From a virus, in the IMG/VR virus record IMGVR_UViG_3300020045_001036, positions 31,351-95,350 of that record: DNA of 64,000 bases; one strand, 5' to 3'. Every line of letters begins with the position of its first letter. The first letter of the stretch is position 1. The position numbers were made by a program, and so were the translations under genes. Positions 11 to 33,600 of the stretch are shown in pieces. Below the pieces are notes generated by a model that saw only the letters and a program-made list of their open reading frames with translations, searched no databases and was not told where the DNA came from.

Positions 11-89
11 AAATAGAGTAGTTAAAGTTAAGTTACTTCAAAAAATATGGATTTTTAAACAACAAACTTAACTCCTGTTCTCTCTATTT
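11..89 (+). ncRNA. Structured repeat RNA copy 1 (Y RNA/YrlA-like)
   Basis: Outer stem AAATAGAG/CTCTATTT, internal loop TAGTTA / CCTGTTCT, inner stem AGTTAAGTT/AACTTAACT, conserved AGTTACTTCAA at 31-41. Confidence 0.7.
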
Positions 90-93
90 AAAT

Positions 94-167
94 TCCTCTC
101 TAGCTCAATTGGTTAGAGCTCCGCACTGTTAATGCGGAGGTTCCTGGTTCGAGCCCAGGGAGAGGAG
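94..167 (+). tRNA. tRNA-Asn(GTT)
   Basis: Acceptor TCCTCTC/GAGAGGA, anticodon arm CCGCA-CTGTTAA-TGCGG, T loop TTCGAGC. Confidence 0.95.
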
Positions 168-178
168 CAATAAAAACT

Positions 179-250
179 GGGGGAAACGATAGTTCGAACC
201 TATCTGGGGCCACAATAGTGTGGTTCTATCGTCTAGGGGATAGGACGCCC
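179..250 (+). ncRNA. Circularly permuted tRNA-like module without an anticodon loop
   Basis: Order is T arm GATAG-TTCGAAC-CTATC (188-204), acceptor stem TGGGGCCACA/TGTGGTTCTA closed by ATAG loop (205-228), then D arm GTC-TAGGGGATAG-GAC (231-246); GGG/CCC closes the ends. Confidence 0.7.
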
Positions 251-260
251 TAAAATTACA

Positions 261-383
261 AATACAAGGTAGTTATAACTAAGTTACTTCAACTTTAGCT
301 CATAGAGCAAATAACTTTTAATTATTCGGAACCAGTTAAATCTGGTATTTTGCAAACACCTTAGTTAGCATTCTCCTTGTATT
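261..383 (+). ncRNA. Structured repeat RNA copy 2 with embedded degenerate tRNA-Lys(TTT)-like body
   Basis: Outer stem AATACAAGG/CCTTGTATT, inner stem TAACTAAG/CTTAGTTA, AGTTACTTCAA at 282-292; loop has TAGCTCATAGAGCA, AATAA-CTTTTAA-TTATT and ACCAG-TTAAAT-CTGGT. Confidence 0.7.
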
Positions 384-411
384 ATTATTTCTTTATGTGA
401 ATTATATGTTG

Positions 412-419
412 TACCTTTG
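412..419 (+). promoter_or_regulatory. Bacteroidota primary-sigma -7 element TAnnTTTG (TACCTTTG) inside a hairpin
   Basis: Matches TAnnTTTG about 20 nt upstream of the ATG at 440; flanked by inverted repeat ATGTGAATTA...TAATTCACAT (395-436). Confidence 0.55.
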
Positions 420-439
420 TACATATTAATTCACATGTT

Positions 440-904
440 ATGAACACAGAACAATTTATACCTTGGTTTACAGGGTTATTTGAAGGAGAAGGATCCTTCT
501 ACATTACAAAAGGTATAGCAAAAGGCTTATCCTTGACATCTACAGATTTAGATGTGTTAGAGAGAATACAAGAGCATTTAGGTGGCAATATCTGTGCAAG
601 TACAACAAAGAGAGAGCATTGGAAACAAGCCTATATTTGGACTATACACGGTATAAATGCTAAAAGGGTTGTAGAAAATATGCAACCATACCTTTTAAAT
701 AGAAGATTAAATAGATCCCAGGAATGGATATCTTTATATGATGCTAATGTAGAAATACAAGCAACTAAGAAATTAGAACAAGAACAAAAAATTCAACAAA
801 TTTTAATTTTAAGTGAAACAGGTTTAACACATTCTCAAATAGCTTCACAAATGGGTTATGAAAGAAGTAGTGTAACTAAGATCATTAACAAGATTAGACC
901 TTAG
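440..904 (+). CDS. LAGLIDADG-family homing endonuclease with C-terminal HTH
   Basis: N-terminal WFTGLFEGEGSF motif; C-terminal GLTHSQIASQMGYERSSVTKI helix-turn-helix. Confidence 0.8.
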   Translation: MNTEQFIPWFTGLFEGEGSFYITKGIAKGLSLTSTDLDVLERIQEHLGGNICASTTKREHWKQAYIWTIHGINAKRVVENMQPYLLNRRLNRSQEWISLYDANVEIQATKKLEQEQKIQQILILSETGLTHSQIASQMGYERSSVTKIINKIRP

Positions 905-933
905 TCTCACCTTTCACACTAATCTTTATTATT

Positions 934-1119
934 ATGAGCAGAACTTTAAGAAGATCAAAAAAAGATAATAAAATATATCCAGAAGGACAATTTCCTAAAG
1001 TCTTTAGATATGTATGTAGATGTTCTTATTGTACAGGAGTAGATAAACAGACTCTAGTTAATAAGATTCAAAAAAAAGAGTTAAAACAATTAATAAACTA
1101 CAATGCAACATGGATTTAA
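934..1119 (+). CDS. Small basic hypothetical protein (CRCSYC)
   Basis: ORF track; AT-rich leader. Confidence 0.55.
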   Translation: MSRTLRRSKKDNKIYPEGQFPKVFRYVCRCSYCTGVDKQTLVNKIQKKELKQLINYNATWI

Positions 1120-1214
1120 ATAAATATCTAGTATTAGGAATATTAGGTTTAAATATTGCATTATATCTTTATATCTATATCGTAGATATAAAGAAAAATA
1201 AGATAACACAATAG
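1110..1214 (+). CDS. Possible 34-aa membrane peptide
   Basis: Manual translation MDLNKYLVLGILGLNIALYLYIYIVDIKKNKITQ; start overlaps the end of the preceding ORF. Confidence 0.35.
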   Translation: MDLNKYLVLGILGLNIALYLYIYIVDIKKNKITQ

Positions 1215-1288
1215 TAATGAGAAAGTTACTTCAACAAAATCTGTAACATTTTATAAAACCAACTTTCTTAAATGTTCTTTGTGTTTAT
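1203..1288 (+). ncRNA. Structured repeat RNA copy 3 with Tyr(GTA)-like anticodon stem-loop
   Basis: Outer stem AACACAA/TTGTGTT, inner stem TGAGAAAGTT/AACTTTCTTA, AGTTACTTCAA at 1224-1234, loop hairpin AAAAT-CTGTAAC-ATTTT (1236-1252). Confidence 0.7.
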
Positions 1289-1362
1289 GGCCCTTTAGCT
1301 CAGCTTGGTAGAGCAGTTGACTCATAATCAAAAGGTCTCAGGTTCAAATCCTGGAGGGGCCA
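1289..1362 (+). tRNA. tRNA with CAT anticodon, probably Ile2 (lysidine) rather than Met
   Basis: GGCCCTT/AGGGGCC-type acceptor typical of Ile2, loop CTCATAA, T loop TTCAAAT. Confidence 0.85.
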
Positions 1363-1393
1363 CAACTAATTAATTAACTAAACAATTAAAATC

Positions 1394-1537
1394 ATGCCTA
1401 AAGTAAAAATAAAACAACAGACTCCACAAGAACGCGCTGATGCGTTCCATAATTGGATGCAAAATAAAGTCAAATCTGTACATCTAGCTGATAATGCTAA
1501 AATGTCGGAAGCTTATGTAAAAGTATATAAAGCATAG
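1394..1537 (+). CDS. 47-aa hypothetical protein
   Basis: Manual translation MPKVKIKQQTPQERADAFHNWMQNKVKSVHLADNAKMSEAYVKVYKA; A-rich leader; followed by a hairpin at about 1536-1563. Confidence 0.55.
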   Translation: MPKVKIKQQTPQERADAFHNWMQNKVKSVHLADNAKMSEAYVKVYKA

Positions 1538-1642
1538 CCCTATACTTGATGGCTATAGGGTTTAAGTAAGCACATACATTCAGATAACATTACACACTAA
1601 GAACAATTGAATGTTCATTCTGACGTATGTGCTTTAAAATAT

Positions 1643-1713
1643 AGGATATAGTTATAAGTAAGTTACTTCAAAAACGCTATTTTTAAAAAAAACTTACTTA
1701 GCTTTCTTATCCT
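1643..1713 (+). ncRNA. Structured repeat RNA copy 4 (Y RNA/YrlA-like)
   Basis: Outer stem AGGATA/TATCCT, internal loop TAGTTA / GCTTTCT, perfect inner stem TAAGTAAGTT/AACTTACTTA, AGTTACTTCAA at 1661-1671. Confidence 0.7.
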
Positions 1714-27198: not shown

Positions 27199-28250
27199 TG
27201 GAACAAACAGTTTATAAAATAGATAGTAAAGGTAAATTAAGATTTATTACTATTTCAGCAGTAGATGATACTATAGTACAAATAAGTGGATTACTGGGTG
27301 GTAACCCAGTTTCCAATATAAGTAAGTGTGAAGGAAAAAATATAGGAAAAACTAATTCTACAACACCTCAAGAACAAGCTATAGTAGAAACTGCAGCTAA
27401 GATTAAGAAAAAACTTGATGAAGGTTACTATATAACTACAGAAGAAGCTATTCAAGGTACTCTTATCTTACCAATGTTAGCTAAGGAATTTCAAGATGAT
27501 AAAGTAATTTATCCTTGTTATGTACAACCTAAACTAGATGGTATGAGATGCTTAAAGGAGAGAGCTTCTATGAGATCCAGAAAAAATAAAGAGATAGAAA
27601 CTGTAGGCCATATAGCCAAAGAAGATAGTGGAGATATTATTCTAGATGGAGAATTATATTCTCATGGATTAAGTTTTCAAGAAAATATGAAGCTTATTAA
27701 GAAGTATAGAAAGAATGTGACTGAAGCCATAAGATATCATGTGTATGATGTAGTTCTAGATAAACCTTTTAGAGAAAGAATGATAATCTTACAAGAATTA
27801 CTACTTACTTTAAAATCTAATGTTATACTACTTGTACCTACATATACGGTGAATAATAAGAAGGAGTTAGAAGCATATCATATTCAGTTTATACAAGAAG
27901 GATATGAAGGTACTATAGTAAGACATACAGAGGCTTCTTATGAAATTAATAAAAGAAGTTCACAATTGCTTAAGTATAAAGATTTCTTAGATGAAACTTT
28001 TACTATTGTAGATATATTACCTTCTGAAAGTAGACCGGAGCAAGGTGTTATACATTGCGTAGGAATAGGTAATCAAAACCAAGCTTTTACTTTTGGTTGT
28101 GGTATGAAATTTTCTCATGCTGAAAGAGAAGAATTTTTAATTAATAAAATAGACTACATAGGAAAGACTGCTGAGGTAAGATTCTTTGAACTTACTGATA
28201 ATGGTATACCAAGATTTCCTGTATGTGTAGGTATAAGGTTAGATAAATAA
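27198..28250 (+). CDS. ATP-dependent DNA ligase
   Basis: PMLA, PKLDGMR, LDGELY, YDV, GYEG, LLKYK, PRFP. Confidence 0.93.
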   Translation: MEQTVYKIDSKGKLRFITISAVDDTIVQISGLLGGNPVSNISKCEGKNIGKTNSTTPQEQAIVETAAKIKKKLDEGYYITTEEAIQGTLILPMLAKEFQDDKVIYPCYVQPKLDGMRCLKERASMRSRKNKEIETVGHIAKEDSGDIILDGELYSHGLSFQENMKLIKKYRKNVTEAIRYHVYDVVLDKPFRERMIILQELLLTLKSNVILLVPTYTVNNKKELEAYHIQFIQEGYEGTIVRHTEASYEINKRSSQLLKYKDFLDETFTIVDILPSESRPEQGVIHCVGIGNQNQAFTFGCGMKFSHAEREEFLINKIDYIGKTAEVRFFELTDNGIPRFPVCVGIRLDK

Positions 28251-28262
28251 TAAAGATAAAAA

Positions 28263-28559
28263 ATGCAAACTAGTAAAGAGTATAAGGCAATTAAAAATTT
28301 CTTTCACAATGATCTTGGATTAAGTAGAGAAGAAATTAGAAAAATAGCTGTTGAAGCTATTAAAGAAGAAGCTCAATCTGTAGTTCATAGATTTGTACAA
28401 ACAAAAGAAATTAGTGTAAGCACTATTTTAGAGGATCAACTTAAAAAAGAAATCAATAGACTTTTAAATGGATCTACGTACAACTCTCAATCTAGAGAAT
28501 TAATGGGTATGATTGGTACACAGATAGCTAAACAAATTGAAATAAAAGTTAAGGTATGA
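28263..28559 (+). CDS. Hypothetical protein
   Basis: ORF track. Confidence 0.6.
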   Translation: MQTSKEYKAIKNFFHNDLGLSREEIRKIAVEAIKEEAQSVVHRFVQTKEISVSTILEDQLKKEINRLLNGSTYNSQSRELMGMIGTQIAKQIEIKVKV

Positions 28560-28849
28560 CAGCAACAGAATTTAATACTAAATACGATAAGTTCATAGAG
28601 AGAAGAACTTACTTGAATAAGTACAGTGAACTTATAGAACAAAAATTTGATGGATTAGAGTTTGATATTCCTGAAGTAACAGAGTATTTAGATGTGGCAT
28701 TCACACCTTTAGTTCTAATGCCAGGATTTACATTTACTCAAATTAAGTTAAAATTTGGAAGTGCTAGAGTTTATACTACAGCCCCTGGGGATATTAATCT
28801 TACAATAGAAAGAACAATCGATAAAATAATCAAAGAATTAAAAGTATGA
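28556..28849 (+). CDS. Hypothetical protein (QIKLKFG.ARVY)
   Basis: ORF track, coupled. Confidence 0.6.
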   Translation: MTATEFNTKYDKFIERRTYLNKYSELIEQKFDGLEFDIPEVTEYLDVAFTPLVLMPGFTFTQIKLKFGSARVYTTAPGDINLTIERTIDKIIKELKV

Positions 28850-30405
28850 TAGCAATGATAGCAGCCTTCCTTGCAGATGGCTACAAATTTGGCCATGCGC
28901 CAATGTTTCCTGTTGGAACAGAATATGCATATAGTAACTTTACTCCTAGAAGTAATAAATACGCACCTAAAGGATGTGATGAAGTAGTAGTATTTGGTAC
29001 TACTTATGCAATGAAACAAATTCATAATGCATTTAAACATAGTTTCTTTGATATTCCTAAGAGTCTTGTATTAGATCAAATTGAAGAAGTGTTAACTCCA
29101 TACTTTGGTATGCCGTATGATTCAACTCCATTTGCTAAATTACATGATTTAGGTTATTTACCTATCAGGGTTAAAGCTTTACCGGAAGGTAGCTTATGCC
29201 CTATGAAAGTACCTATGTTGACTATAATAAATACTCATAAAGAGTTTTATTGGTTACCTAACTTCTTAGAAACTATTCTTAGTAATTCTATGTGGAAACC
29301 AATGACATCTGCTACTATAGCATTTGGTTACAAGAAACTGTTAACTAAATGGGCTTTAGCTACAGATAAGGATAATGTCGGATTTGTAGACTTTCAAGCA
29401 CATGATTTCTCTATGAGAGGACTTGATAGTGTAGATGCTACTATTGCTTCAGGATTGGGCCATTTAACTTCATTTAAAGGAACAGATAGTCTACCTGCTA
29501 TTATAGGAGCTAGACAATATTACAATGCTACTGGATTTGTAGCTGGTAGTGTACCTGCTTCTGAGCATTCAGTAATGTGTGCAGGAGGTAAAGAATCTGA
29601 GATTGAAACATTCAGAAGACTACTTAGAACTTTTGCTAAAGCTCCTGTATTATCTGTAGTTTCAGATACATGGGACTTATGGAAAGTAGTAGGACCTGGT
29701 GGATATGTAGAGCAACTTAAAGAAGAGATACTAGCTGGTAATACTAAGTTAGTTATTAGGCCTGATAGTGGTGATCCAGTAGATATTATCTGTGGAGAAC
29801 AAGTATTTGAGCATAAAGGTAAACTTTGTGTCGAAAGAGAAGTTAATCATTTTCCAGGTTTAGAAACAATACCATTAACTGATGAAAGAGTTTCTACTAA
29901 TCAAGTAAAAGGAGTAATTGAACTTCTATGGGATACTTTTGGAGGTACCGTTAATGAACAAGGTTATAAAGTATTACACCCTAAGATTGGAGCTATCTAT
30001 GGTGATAGTATTACTCTTGATAGAGCTGAAGCTATATGTTCTAGATTAGCAGCTAAAGGATTTGCTAGTACTAATATTGTATTAGGAGTAGGTTCTTATA
30101 CCTATCAAATGAATACTAGAGATACTTTTGGATTTGCTATGAAAGCTACTTGGGTTCAAGTAAATGGATTAGGTATTAGTATCTTTAAAGATCCTATTAC
30201 TGATGATGGTATGAAGAAATCTGCTAGAGGTTTAATTCAAATTATCAAACAAGATGGAAAACTTAAACTTAGAGATGGTATTGGTTGGAAAGAAGAGAGA
30301 GAAGGAGAATTAAAAGATCTTTATGTAGATGGAGTATTTTCTAATAAAGTAACTCTAGATCAAATTAGAGAGAAACTAAGTGATAAAGTATTAGGATGGA
30401 CATAA
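28846..30405 (+). CDS. Nicotinamide phosphoribosyltransferase-like (probable NARP1 Namat)
   Basis: DGYKFGH, HDFSMRG, PASEHSVM, SVVSDTWD, IRPDSG, IYGDSIT, KDPITD. Confidence 0.9.
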   Translation: MIAMIAAFLADGYKFGHAPMFPVGTEYAYSNFTPRSNKYAPKGCDEVVVFGTTYAMKQIHNAFKHSFFDIPKSLVLDQIEEVLTPYFGMPYDSTPFAKLHDLGYLPIRVKALPEGSLCPMKVPMLTIINTHKEFYWLPNFLETILSNSMWKPMTSATIAFGYKKLLTKWALATDKDNVGFVDFQAHDFSMRGLDSVDATIASGLGHLTSFKGTDSLPAIIGARQYYNATGFVAGSVPASEHSVMCAGGKESEIETFRRLLRTFAKAPVLSVVSDTWDLWKVVGPGGYVEQLKEEILAGNTKLVIRPDSGDPVDIICGEQVFEHKGKLCVEREVNHFPGLETIPLTDERVSTNQVKGVIELLWDTFGGTVNEQGYKVLHPKIGAIYGDSITLDRAEAICSRLAAKGFASTNIVLGVGSYTYQMNTRDTFGFAMKATWVQVNGLGISIFKDPITDDGMKKSARGLIQIIKQDGKLKLRDGIGWKEEREGELKDLYVDGVFSNKVTLDQIREKLSDKVLGWT

Positions 30406-30614
30406 GAACGGATATAATTGGTAGAATAATAGAAATAGGTTGCAGGGTAGTTTATAATCCTCCTTATTATAAAGGTATAAAGGTTGCTATAGTTGTGGGC
30501 TTTGCTAAATCAGGCTTACCTATAATTGTGCCACAAGATCAGTATGAAGAGTATTTAGAAGATAATCACGGTTATAATGATACACCTAAAACAGGATTTG
30601 CAAGAATAGATTAA
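30396..30614 (+). CDS. Hypothetical protein
   Basis: ORF track; last gene of the + arm. Confidence 0.6.
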   Translation: MDIRTDIIGRIIEIGCRVVYNPPYYKGIKVAIVVGFAKSGLPIIVPQDQYEEYLEDNHGYNDTPKTGFARID

Positions 30615-30617
30615 AAC

Positions 30618-30663
30618 AAAAAAGAGAGATGTACCTTACGGTATGTCTCTCTTTATTTTTTTT
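30618..30663. terminator. Bidirectional terminator between convergent genome arms
   Basis: A run, AAAGAGAGATGTACC-TTAC-GGTATGTCTCTCTTT, T run. Confidence 0.85.
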
Positions 30664-33600
30664 CTAATATGAACTTTTTCTTTTCTTATGTCCAACTGAA
30701 CCTTGTTGTCCTGATTCTATTCTTTCCATTATAGAAATATTAGACTCATCTTTTTTCTTTCTTGGGAATTTCTTTCTCATAGCTTTCTTAACAGCTTTAT
30801 CTTTTTCTTCTTGAGGTAAGTTTGAATATTCTTCTTCAAATACAGTTCTAGCATCTTCTCTAAGAGCTTCATATCTCTTAGTAGCAATATATTCATCACC
30901 ACCTTCACCATGTGTCTTAGCATAAGTATCAGTCCATTGAGTTTGATTAAACTCATAAGAATCATGCCAAGGTAATTCTCCTTTAGTTAAAATACTAGGT
31001 AATGGAGATATTTTAGCTAAATCTTTCATAAATTTACCCTTCTCATTACCTGTCATTATATCTCCCATAACCTTCTTAGTATTTACTAGATATTCAAAGA
31101 AAGCTAATCTTTGAGCTGTAGTATATAATGCAGTAGGATCTGACCAAAGATTAAATGAATCCACCATTCTAGATACTTGATTATCAAAGAAGGTGGCTAA
31201 TTTTTTATCCTCATCGTCATCATCCGGACCAGTTAATAATGACTTACCTGCCCATAATAGAGCTACAAAAGTTAACTTAATAGCTACTTCTTTAGAGATA
31301 GCTTGTAGATTATTAATATCTGTTTGATTTAAATTAGTTCTTTCATCTAAAGGAACTTGTTCCTCAAGGCCTACCATTTTCTTTAAAGATACATTAGCAT
31401 TGACAAATTCTAATGGATAATTTAAAGTATTGAATACCACATCAATAGCAAAATCAGTTAGACTATATAAAGTTTGAGCTTCAGCTACTAAATTTTTCTT
31501 ATTATAATATTTTTTAGCCTGATCATAGCCTACACCTATAGCAATAGAACTTGCAGCTATACTCACTGGGATAGCACCTATACCAAAACCAGCAATAGCA
31601 CTTAATCCTAATACAGGAAACATGATATTCTTATTAGCCCATAAAGATCTATATCTACCTTTTAATTTAGCCTCTCCTGTAGTTAAATCAAATCCTTCCC
31701 CAGAAGCATATCTTTGCATAAAATGCTCAGGCATCCATCTCATAAACATAGTAGACATTTTACCTAATAGATTGTTGGTAGCTTGAGTTACATCTAAGTT
31801 ATCATAATTACCTTGTGATCTAGAGATAGCATTCTTAATCTTCATCCTAGTTAGGAAGTAAGAGTTATTTGAGGCATCTTGTTCATCTATATTAAAGTAC
31901 TCCCAAGTAGTTAAATTCTTCTCTGTGGCAAATTCAGATTTAAGAACTAAGTTACCCTCTTTTACCTCATGTGCTGGGAATCCTTTTCCATCAAATATGG
32001 AAACTTCATTACCATCTTTATCTGTAATTTTAGTATCTTTTAAAATACTTAATAGGATAGCTCCTTGATTTTTCATTTCAGGATTATCTACAGCAAATTG
32101 AAAAGGATTTAACTTCTCTTCTATAATACCTGTTATACCAGATCCTGTACTTTTTTCTAAATCACTTTTTCTATCTTGTATAAGACCCATACCATTAACA
32201 AGCATTTGAAACTTCTTTAATTCCTGTATGTGTTTATTTTTTAAACTATCTAAACCTGTAACTTTCATAAAATTACTACCAGCCATAAATTGATTAGCTT
32301 CTTGTAAATTACCTTTAGTCCAATACTTACCGGAAGCATCCATTATAAGTCCGGAATTCATACCTTCAATTCTATTAAAGACACCTGAAATAGGATTTAA
32401 GGCCATAGACTTTAACATTATTATTTTCATAATACCTTGAGCTATACCTGCAGCACTTGTATGTAATCCTAAAGATTCTATATGAGCATCAATTGTAGCT
32501 TTATCTAAACCTTCTATATCTCTACCTTTTAAATCTTGTAAATGTTTAAGCAATTCCTTCTCATTATCTGAAAGTAAGGCAGTACTTTTTGTATTTAGAT
32601 AGTCTTTAAGCCAAGGTATAGTACCTGTTTTATCTAGTATCATATCTAATAAGCTTTCTTTACTCATTGATTGACCTAGTACACTTTCTGAACCTCTGGC
32701 CTTATCATTTTGACTTTTAATAACTCTATTTATATAGTTTTCCATTCTAGCTATACTTCTTTTTCTTTTACCATCAGAAGCAATGCTATGTGCATCTAAA
32801 ATCAGATTAGCCACTGGTAATGTATCCTCTTTAGCTTTTTGAAGAGCTGTCATAGATAGTATAGCAGATGTCACTTTATTTATATCTGAAGAGTAATTAC
32901 TAAGAACTTGATTTGTTGCTATAGCTTTTGCTAAAGCAGCTTTATCTTTATATACTTTAGGATTAGGTACTATACCTTCTTTAATAGCTAATTCTTCTAA
33001 TTCTGTTTGAGTTTTCAAAACAAGTACACTAGCTAATCTAGATATTTCAAATTTACTTTTATCTCTATAAGCTTTTTTAACTTCATTGGAATCTTCTGGT
33101 TTAGAACCTACCTCATAGAAATATTCTTTAAAACCTTTTATAGCATTGCCAACAGCTTTACCAACCTTAGCAACACCTTGAGCACTAGCAATAGTTTCTA
33201 AGTAGTTTTCTTCAAACTTGGCATAAGATAAATCCTTTACACCGGATTTAGTATTAAATACAGGATTAACATAATCTCCATATATCTCAGTCATAAGTTG
33301 CCAATAAGCTAACTTGTTAGGATCACTTTGTATTTCATTAAAATCTGTATTGTAGTAACCGGAAGCCTTTTTAATAGGCACTTCTTCAAAATCATCAGTT
33401 TCTTCGTTATATTCAGATACCCAATCTGATATTACATCTTTTTTAGGTATAAATCTAGTACTAGATATATCTGGGTATACAAATTCAGTATTACCAGATG
33501 GTGTACTATATGGCATAATCTCATTTTTCTTATCACTATTAAAGTGTTTAATGAAACTCCAAGGATCTATTCTAGCTGTATTTTTATGTTTAAATTGATC

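Follow-up and report, generated by a model that had tools for sequence, protein, structure and literature searches.

Putative Y RNA-like small RNAs interleaved with the tRNA genes of a crAss-like phage that encodes a Ro60 protein

The stretch of DNA analysed here (hereinafter the window; 64,000 nucleotides (nt)) corresponds to bases 31,351-95,350 of a complete viral genome of 95,350 base pairs (bp) with direct terminal repeats, IMG/VR record IMGVR_UViG_3300020045_001036 (G000 below). The virus is crAss-like, because its capsid and terminase proteins are homologous to those of phage crAss001 (28-29% identity, expectation value (E) about 1e-37); crAss-like phages are relatives of the most abundant human gut viruses. 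The first 3.2 kb of the window contain nine transfer RNA (tRNA) genes, recognized with ARAGORN and Rfam, and interleaved with these genes are four copies of a structured element. These elements belong to a real, widespread family of structured RNAs. Judging from sequence comparison, we believe, with a probability of roughly 0.78, that they are small RNAs of a Y RNA-like family and would be the partners of the phage's own Ro60 protein, which is encoded immediately upstream of the window.

The features considered are listed below, in window coordinates unless stated otherwise; R1 is the covariance model described in the second section, the E-values of which are rough owing to a shortened calibration.

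11-89, plus strand: copy 1 of the element; short head consisting of a weak A-U hairpin and a AAACAACA tail; R1 78.9 bits, E 2.6e-14 at 13-87
261-383, plus strand: copy 2; the head is a normal-order tRNA-like body; R1 38.7 bits, E 3.5e-5 at 264-380
1203-1288, plus strand: copy 3; short head that includes a 5-bp hairpin with the 7-nt loop CUGUAAC; R1 62.1 bits, E 1.7e-10 at 1206-1284
1643-1713, plus strand: copy 4; the shortest head, 20 nt; R1 69.3 bits, E 3.8e-12
G000 27,851-29,488, plus strand: Ro60 gene (TROVE ring and vWA domain), 545 amino acids (aa), 1.9 kb upstream of window position 1
94-168, plus strand: tRNA-Asn (ARAGORN, Rfam), directly downstream of copy 1
1289-1363, plus strand: tRNA-Met (ARAGORN, Rfam), directly downstream of copy 3
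178-252, plus strand: circularly permuted tRNA-like module without a handle, between tRNA-Asn and copy 2, recognized by reading of the sequence and from its minimum free energy (MFE) fold
440-904: open reading frame (ORF) for a LAGLIDADG homing endonuclease with a C-terminal helix-turn-helix, within the array of tRNAs and Y-like RNAs, right after copy 2
G000 30,713-31,083 (L001:845-1215): transfer-messenger RNA (tmRNA) gene (Rfam RF00023), located between copy 1 and the Ro60 gene, 267-637 nt before the first base of the window

Four copies of one structured element

All four copies share the same architecture, namely, an outer stem, an asymmetric internal loop in which UAGU(U/A)A is opposed to ..UUCU, an inner stem, the sequence ACUUCAA and a variable head. 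The pattern TAGTWA-N6-12-TTACTTCAA has four matches in the window, all on the plus strand, against 0.01 expected from shuffled sequences, and the search of the whole 95,350-bp genome yields the same four and no others. The nested arrangement of outer stem, internal loop and inner stem folds in every copy, with z-scores of -2.7, -3.9, -0.9 and -3.0 for copies 1 to 4, respectively. The copies are 71-123 nt long and their ends are paired in nested stems with an internal loop, as expected of Y RNAs (60-130 nt). Thus, both the pattern match and the folds confirm the original prediction, made from this sequence alone, which had placed four copies at these positions on this strand, and the stems parsed here are those that it had listed.

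Beyond the shared part, the copies differ substantially. Copy 1, which has orthologues in two related phages (L123:8151-8227 and L126:7115-7190), is followed by tRNA-Asn, which starts 4 nt past its end, and copy 3 is abutted by tRNA-Met at position 1289. The head of copy 2 comprises a D arm, an anticodon arm with the loop CUUUUAA, which resembles that of a tRNA-Lys with the anticodon UUU, a T arm whose loop is atypical, and a weak acceptor. The tRNA-like body of copy 2 (Rfam RF00005, 36.3 bits at 289-354, gathering threshold 29) is degenerate, with the acceptor paired at 4 of 7 positions, the T loop UUAAAUC, a D loop lacking GG, and a 3' end that continues into the rest of the element, and it is not called as a tRNA by ARAGORN. 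The CUGUAAC loop of copy 3 shares 6 of its 7 nucleotides with that of the tRNA-Tyr encoded by the phage; taken singly, neither of these two anticodon resemblances is statistically significant. Copies 1, 3 and 4 contain no tRNA body, and the order of arms typical of the bacterial Y RNA YrlA (T arm, capped acceptor, D arm) is found in none of the four.

That order does occur, without a handle, in the module at 178-252, which consists of a T arm, a capped acceptor hairpin of 7-10 bp and a D-like arm within the closing stem and adopts a four-way junction fold; the MFE fold of the segment 169-262 has an energy of -26.1 kcal/mol and a z-score of -2.4. The module does not match the Rfam YrlA model, and a BLAST search of 169-262 against the relatives found nothing. 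Possibly, it represents a fifth Ro60-related RNA. Further downstream, at 2002-2027, the hairpin TCTTAGTTA-CTTGCAAA-TAACTAAGA has an inner-stem sequence that is nearly that of copy 2 and a loop like ACTTCAA with an extra G; this hairpin, which lacks the outer stem and a model match, may be a relic of a further copy.

A covarying RNA family in uncultured phages

Relatives of the window phage were collected via the DNA polymerase. The close group consists of three complete phages that are 61-66% identical to it in PolA and carry 18-24 tRNAs each; the element is present in the spacers between these tRNAs, where it reads ACUUCG instead of ACUUCAA. Six distant polymerase relatives have no tRNA array, no element and no Ro60. 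The ACTTCG variant came from direct reading of the tRNA spacers, a loose descriptor search in the polymerase relatives being too noisy, and a first scan of viral contigs with TAGTWA..TTACTTCAA yielded only single matches without nested stems, which we dismissed as chance matches. When TAGTAA-N7-11-GTTACTTCG was run against the viral contigs, many of them had two to four matches. The covariance model R1, seeded by nine copies of equal segment length, matched 69 copies in 35 loci and had no matches in 731 kb of bacterial DNA containing the bare sequence pattern, which has 120 single matches in bacterial genomes, none of the 100 searched being scored by the model. In total, the covariance model detected more than 100 copies in uncultured phages, many of the viral records being fragments, and one in the cultured phage crAss001. 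The family is absent from Rfam, and we found no paper describing the handle, as we call the constant paired part of the element, or any Ro60 RNAs in Crassvirales.

The alignment of the 69 copies shows strong evidence of conserved base pairing. In this alignment, 89.2% of the stem cells are paired, compared to 60.6% after shuffling, and 16 of the 16 pairs are changed on both sides (15-16 of 16 across the alignments). One outer-stem pair is represented by UA in 19 copies, AU in 17, CG in 17 and GC in 16, without a single mispair. The covariation score is 0.758 versus 0.204 for shuffled alignments (0 of 500 shuffles), and sliding the partners yields at most 0.13. An additional alignment was made of 44 distinct copies that were found by the model only, in loci seeded by the Ro60 protein; because no sequence pattern was used to find these copies, the set is free of pattern ascertainment, and the values are similar (90.1% paired versus 58.4% shuffled; covariation 0.849 versus 0.211). 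The compensatory change that had been claimed from the four window copies is thus borne out on both alignments.

Some of the unpaired nucleotides are conserved, too. UAGYAA on the 5' side, GUUACUUC atop the inner helix and AYUUUCU on the 3' side are near-invariant, with the loop usually closed by a G-C pair, and the 3' UUCU is present in 69 of the 69 copies despite never having been part of any search pattern. The original prediction considered ACTTCAA to be invariant; this holds within the window phage and in crAss001 but not in most of the relatives, which read ACTTCG, so the family-wide invariant is ACUUC. In copies 1-4 and in all relatives, the 5' internal loop contains AGUAA, the complement of the UUACU in the GUUACUUC motif; pairing of these two motifs, both of which hardly vary, could give an alternative hairpin competing with the inner helix.

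Read as DNA, this complementarity is a short palindrome, and copies 2 and 3 are separated by the LAGLIDADG endonuclease ORF, so one could imagine that the AGTAA...TTACT inverted repeat is the core of a DNA-level element, such as an operator or a site of recombination or homing. Such an element is hardly compatible with the preservation of two long helices by compensatory changes, G-U pairs included, while the sequences drift, or with the location of all copies on the strand of the tRNAs and Ro60, given that a DNA palindrome would not be strand-specific. We consider this explanation scarcely tenable.

The heads vary. In about half of the copies, the head measures 11-36 nt, is barely structured and has an A/C-rich tail. 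In another group, the heads are normal-order tRNA-like bodies in which ACUUCG replaces the 5' strand of the acceptor; its pairing partner, CGARG, comes after the T arm and is itself followed by a small GNRA-type hairpin. In yet another group, the heads mimic circularly permuted tRNAs: they consist of a T arm, a capped acceptor and a D arm, to which some add an anticodon arm, and they attach to the handle at differing points; among these heads of relatives are some with the YrlA order. The swappable cargo postulated in the original prediction is thereby substantiated, in the form of short hairpins, normal-order tRNA bodies and, in the relatives, YrlA-style permuted mimics.

The tRNA-like bodies raise the question of whether the elements are simply tRNA genes, or decaying tRNA pseudogenes, with long paired flanks. 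The Rfam tRNA score of copy 2, which exceeds the gathering threshold, and the ARAGORN tRNA calls inside some of the relatives' elements (L123 3782-3856 and L124 3823-3895), along with the replacement of the acceptor 5' strand by ACUUCG, could be construed in this manner. However, the handle covaries strongly also in that half of the copies in which the head has no tRNA features; the acceptor is limited to 4-5 bp, its 5' strand is fixed and a free 3' end is missing; heads in permuted order would not be chargeable; and copy 2 itself is not recognized by ARAGORN. An origin of the whole family as tRNA genes or pseudogenes is therefore very improbable.

Linkage to a phage Ro60 gene

The head of one relative's element matches the tRNA-like part, and only that part, of the Rfam YrlA model (31 bits, the best score among the relatives, at model positions 23-86 of 114 and below the gathering threshold of 69 bits), and we therefore searched for the TROVE domain of Ro60. 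The window phage and four other complete element-bearing phages each have one TROVE match, in an ORF of 541-565 aa. In the window phage, the Pfam scores of this 545-aa ORF are 23.1 bits for TROVE (cut-off 23) and 24.2 bits for vWA_Ro60 (cut-off 27.7). A profile of the five orthologues matches Xenopus Ro60 (1yvp; E 1.9e-8), the Ro60 of phage phiLo, human RO60 and Deinococcus radiodurans Rsr, and a Foldseek search with an AlphaFold2 (AF2) model has Ro60/Rsr proteins as all of its top 13 matches (E 1e-12 to 1e-10, approximately 500-590 columns). By sequence and predicted structure, the protein is a member of the Ro60/TROVE family, with an apparent HEAT-repeat ring followed by a vWA domain within the characteristic length of approximately 500-600 aa. 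Its closest Ro60 relative among GenBank phage isolates is only 30% identical, and no close one was found there. The original prediction, having found no Ro60 ORF in the window, suggested that the partner might lie outside it; indeed, this TROVE-vWA gene is located 1.9 kb upstream, on the same strand. Because RtcB (PF01139) is absent from the genome of the window phage and from four related genomes, there is no RNA-repair operon context.

Among the viral records, TROVE is present in 22 of the 33 that carry the element and in none of the 21 that do not (Fisher p = 3e-7); the latter, 15 records with chance matches to the pattern plus 6 polymerase relatives, contain no model match. The 11 element-bearing records that lack TROVE are fragments, estimated to be 1-38% complete; when only records at least 50% complete are considered, TROVE is found in 11/11 with the element versus 0/17 without it (Fisher p 5e-8). 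A clade-specific profile reproduces this co-occurrence. In the opposite direction of search, the RNA was detected within 10 kb of Ro60 in 21 (E <= 1e-3) to 24 (E <= 0.01) of the 31 loci seeded by Ro60 alone, with all matches on the strand of Ro60 and many no more than 50-300 nt away from one or the other end of the gene. The distance between the RNA and Ro60 is 0.05-7 kb in other phages, and the RNAs of the window phage are likewise encoded near the Ro60 gene, as is characteristic of Y RNAs in prokaryotes and phages. In seven divergent carriers, no protein other than Ro60 is shared across the 7 kb on either side of the RNAs. This linkage, apparent in both search directions and across diverse phages, supports the assignment of the elements to a Y RNA-like family.

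A further example comes from crAss001 (MH675552), a cultured Bacteroides phage, in which gp96 (96,870-98,288, minus strand) is annotated as 'TROVE domain-containing protein'. Right downstream of gp96, R1 matches 96,691-96,772 on the minus strand (L425:1501-1582; E 5.5e-5), with the sequence ACUUCAA, and a second copy can be recognized by eye at approximately 96,601-96,680, also on the minus strand (about L425:1411-1490). Both copies are located in a 900-nt unannotated gap and have TAGTGT in the loop, ACTTCAA or ACATCAA, and xTGTTCT. The tRNA array of this phage occupies 1.7-5.8 kb, far from the RNA at 96.7 kb. In the crAss001 literature, gp96 is described as early-expressed and as 'a possible ribonucleoprotein component', with no mention of partner RNAs (PMC8375218; PMC10136315).

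In 151 sampled Bacteroidales genomes, the model has matches in two and TROVE is encoded in five, with one genome having both. The convincing bacterial copy (L431:1501-1579; G117:C275:4665-4743) is flanked by genes for a peptidase M49 and a prismane-family protein, and is immediately preceded by a TAnnTTTG-type promoter and followed by a terminator-like hairpin; the TROVE protein of that genome, 478 aa long, is encoded on another contig and so does not adjoin the RNA. No copy of the handle RNA was found in the neighbourhoods of the Bacteroidales TROVE genes. Four tandem hairpins, 270-400 nt apart, beside a tRNA gene in a Bacteroidales chromosome (L430:1227-2245, minus strand) are probably unrelated repeats, given that most of them score weakly on the opposite strand too and the best-scoring one lacks UAGUAA. 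Within the genomes searched, the handle family is essentially a phage family.

Several observations weigh against the assignment to Y RNAs. The Ro60-recognition motif, located on the 5' strand, is GGUCCGA in animals and GNCGAAN0-1G in bacteria (PMC4201824); neither GNCGAAN0-1G nor CGAA is present on the 5' strand of the handle, where UAGUWA and ACUUCAA stand instead. No window copy matches the Rfam models YrlA (RF02553) or Y_RNA, even at E <= 1, and none of the copies, those of the relatives included, attains the curated scores of these models. In the window phage, the RNAs are 1.9-3.6 kb away from Ro60, with the tmRNA gene and small ORFs intervening, and 7-10 of the 31 Ro60-seeded loci have no RNA match. 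The TROVE score of the Ro60 ORF is exactly at the Pfam cut-off, and the N-terminal half of the protein is poorly modelled by AF2 (mean predicted local distance difference test score, pLDDT, 58.7). Finally, the alignments were largely fitted to the model's own structure, which biases the counts towards pairing.

Since the handle lacks the published Ro60/Rsr motif, it is conceivable that the RNA partners another protein, for instance, a host tRNA-binding or RNA-decay enzyme, and that the linkage with Ro60 reflects a shared island of RNA metabolism. The presence of the tmRNA and tRNAs in the same island of the window phage is compatible with this possibility, and so is the bacterial copy that is not beside the TROVE gene of its genome. 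Nevertheless, it is Ro60 alone among the proteins that is conserved around the RNAs in the seven divergent phages, the Ro60 gene is often directly flanked by the RNAs at its two ends, and the sole bacterial genome with a convincing copy is among the 5 of 151 that encode TROVE. A different partner therefore seems unlikely.

Some other features of the locus deserve mention. The tmRNA of the window phage scores 56.5 bits with RF00023 (gathering threshold 47); tmRNA genes with long tag peptides are found also in the distant polymerase relatives that have no tRNA array, elements or Ro60. The stretch of approximately 330 nt that immediately precedes the tmRNA match (L001:510-845; G000 30,378-30,713) appears by eye to be non-coding. 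The tRNA array of one close relative includes an ARAGORN tRNA with the anticodon CUA (L124:8472-8548; amber suppressor type, labelled Pyl), and there is no such call in the window phage. Just upstream of copy 1, there is a Bacteroidetes-type promoter, TTTG-N19-TAtcTTTG, which we did not use as evidence because such motifs are about as frequent in the window as expected (3 occurrences versus 2.6).

Proposed role and comparison with known systems

Under the most plausible scenario, the RNAs would be transcribed together with the phage tRNA array, and the copies that abut tRNAs are probably excised by the tRNA-processing enzymes; 5' processing of tRNA-Asn and tRNA-Met would set the 3' ends of copies 1 and 3, respectively. 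RNase P and 3' tRNA processing would plausibly release these copies because, in the three close relatives, most of the elements fill the spacers between tRNAs, with gaps of 1-11 nt, and because a tRNA on the same strand starts at most 20 nt downstream in 42 of 116 copies. This route is not general, given that the crAss001 copies are far from the tRNA array. The embedding in a tRNA operon, along with the stem/internal loop/stem geometry and the tRNA-like heads of some elements, would also suit processing stalks, in the form of leader-trailer helices interrupted by an asymmetric internal loop, that are cut by RNase III or another host nuclease and punctuate the polycistronic tRNA/mRNA transcript, without any function as free RNAs. 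However, this explanation fails to account for the near-invariant loop nucleotides and ACUUC, for the strict co-occurrence and strand agreement with Ro60, and for the crAss001 copies that flank Ro60 far from the tRNA array, and we consider it decidedly unlikely.

If the elements are indeed Y RNA-like partners of Ro60, the 5' and 3' ends would pair to form the constant two-helix handle, the near-invariant UAGYAA, GUUACUUC and AYUUUCU of which are likely to comprise the docking site for the Ro60 ring, as suggested by the linkage and by analogy with the Rsr-YrlA and phiLo Ro60-Yrl complexes. The variable head might then be the effector end that brings in a tRNA-binding or RNA-decay host factor, such as polynucleotide phosphorylase (PNPase), which is part of known Ro60 particles, or, alternatively, the head itself might be displayed as a tRNA mimic. 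Carrying the speculation further, the Ro60 ring and the handle could be a display scaffold for tRNA and anticodon-arm look-alikes (Lys-UUU-like, Tyr-GUA-like) that are protected from exonucleases and serve as decoys or adaptors for tRNA-recognizing host enzymes. We regard this as a rather doubtful proposition; if true, the targets might be, for example, anti-phage anticodon nucleases or enzymes of tRNA modification or decay, and the heads would be a repertoire evolving against host factors.

Particles of Y RNA and Ro60, a ring-shaped RNA-binding protein, are conserved from bacteria to humans, and human Ro60 is an autoantigen in lupus and Sjogren syndrome; to our knowledge, the function of these particles in bacteria and phages is poorly understood. 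Many large uncultured phages, the crAss-like ones included, carry Ro60 along with several partner-like RNAs that combine one handle with exchangeable heads, which often mimic tRNAs. The variety of head topologies is a natural experiment on which parts of the tRNA shape matter to the particle, and the presence of a copy beside gp96 of the cultured crAss001 makes the role of a phage Ro60 particle directly testable in an existing phage-host system.

Small RNAs located among phage tRNA genes are not without precedent. The tRNA cluster of phage T4 encodes the stable 'species 1 and 2' RNAs (rnaC and rnaD), which lie between tRNA genes and are released by tRNA processing; T4, however, is not known to encode a Ro60 protein. 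In the T7 early RNA, a polycistronic transcript, the RNase III sites consist of two helices with an asymmetric internal loop, so the geometry is alike, but they are not known to have a conserved head motif, variable cargo or linkage to Ro60. Similar in organization are the vertebrate Y RNAs (RF00019), in which a terminal stem, an internal loop, a second stem and a variable loop follow one another and the conserved nucleotides are mainly on the 5' strand; however, there is no significant similarity to the present family (12 bits, E 5.9), and the vertebrate RNAs have no tRNA-like module.

The most relevant precedents come from bacteria and their phages. The Rsr-YrlA/YrlB systems of bacteria and mycobacteriophages consist of a Ro60 orthologue with adjacent Y-like RNAs (Chen et al. 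2014, PMC4201824). Like YrlA and YrlB, the RNAs described here lie beside a Ro60 orthologue, have paired 5' and 3' ends and occur as several paralogues per genome, of which some, like YrlA, contain a tRNA-like module and others, like YrlB, do not, and certain heads of the relatives share the YrlA order of T arm, capped acceptor and D arm; unlike YrlA and YrlB, they have a handle with UAGYAA, GUUACUUC and AYUUUCU, are interleaved with phage tRNAs, are not accompanied by RtcB or RtcA, and display a far larger number of head types, with several permutations in addition to the normal order. The Thermus phage phiLo encodes a Ro60 with the RNAs Yrl1 and Yrl2 (PDB 9KOP, 9L5Y; PMC12135203), so that here, too, both the protein and the Y-like RNAs are phage-encoded, and the phiLo Ro60 is among the best sequence and fold matches of the protein described here. 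The phiLo RNAs were identified by CGAA in a large internal bulge, whereas the present family has no CGAA in the handle, many more copies and tRNA-mimicking heads. Taken as a whole, and at the level of sequence, the family resembles the known Ro60/Y-RNA systems in its linkage, in the stem with an internal loop, in the multiplicity of paralogues and in the partial mimicry of tRNA.

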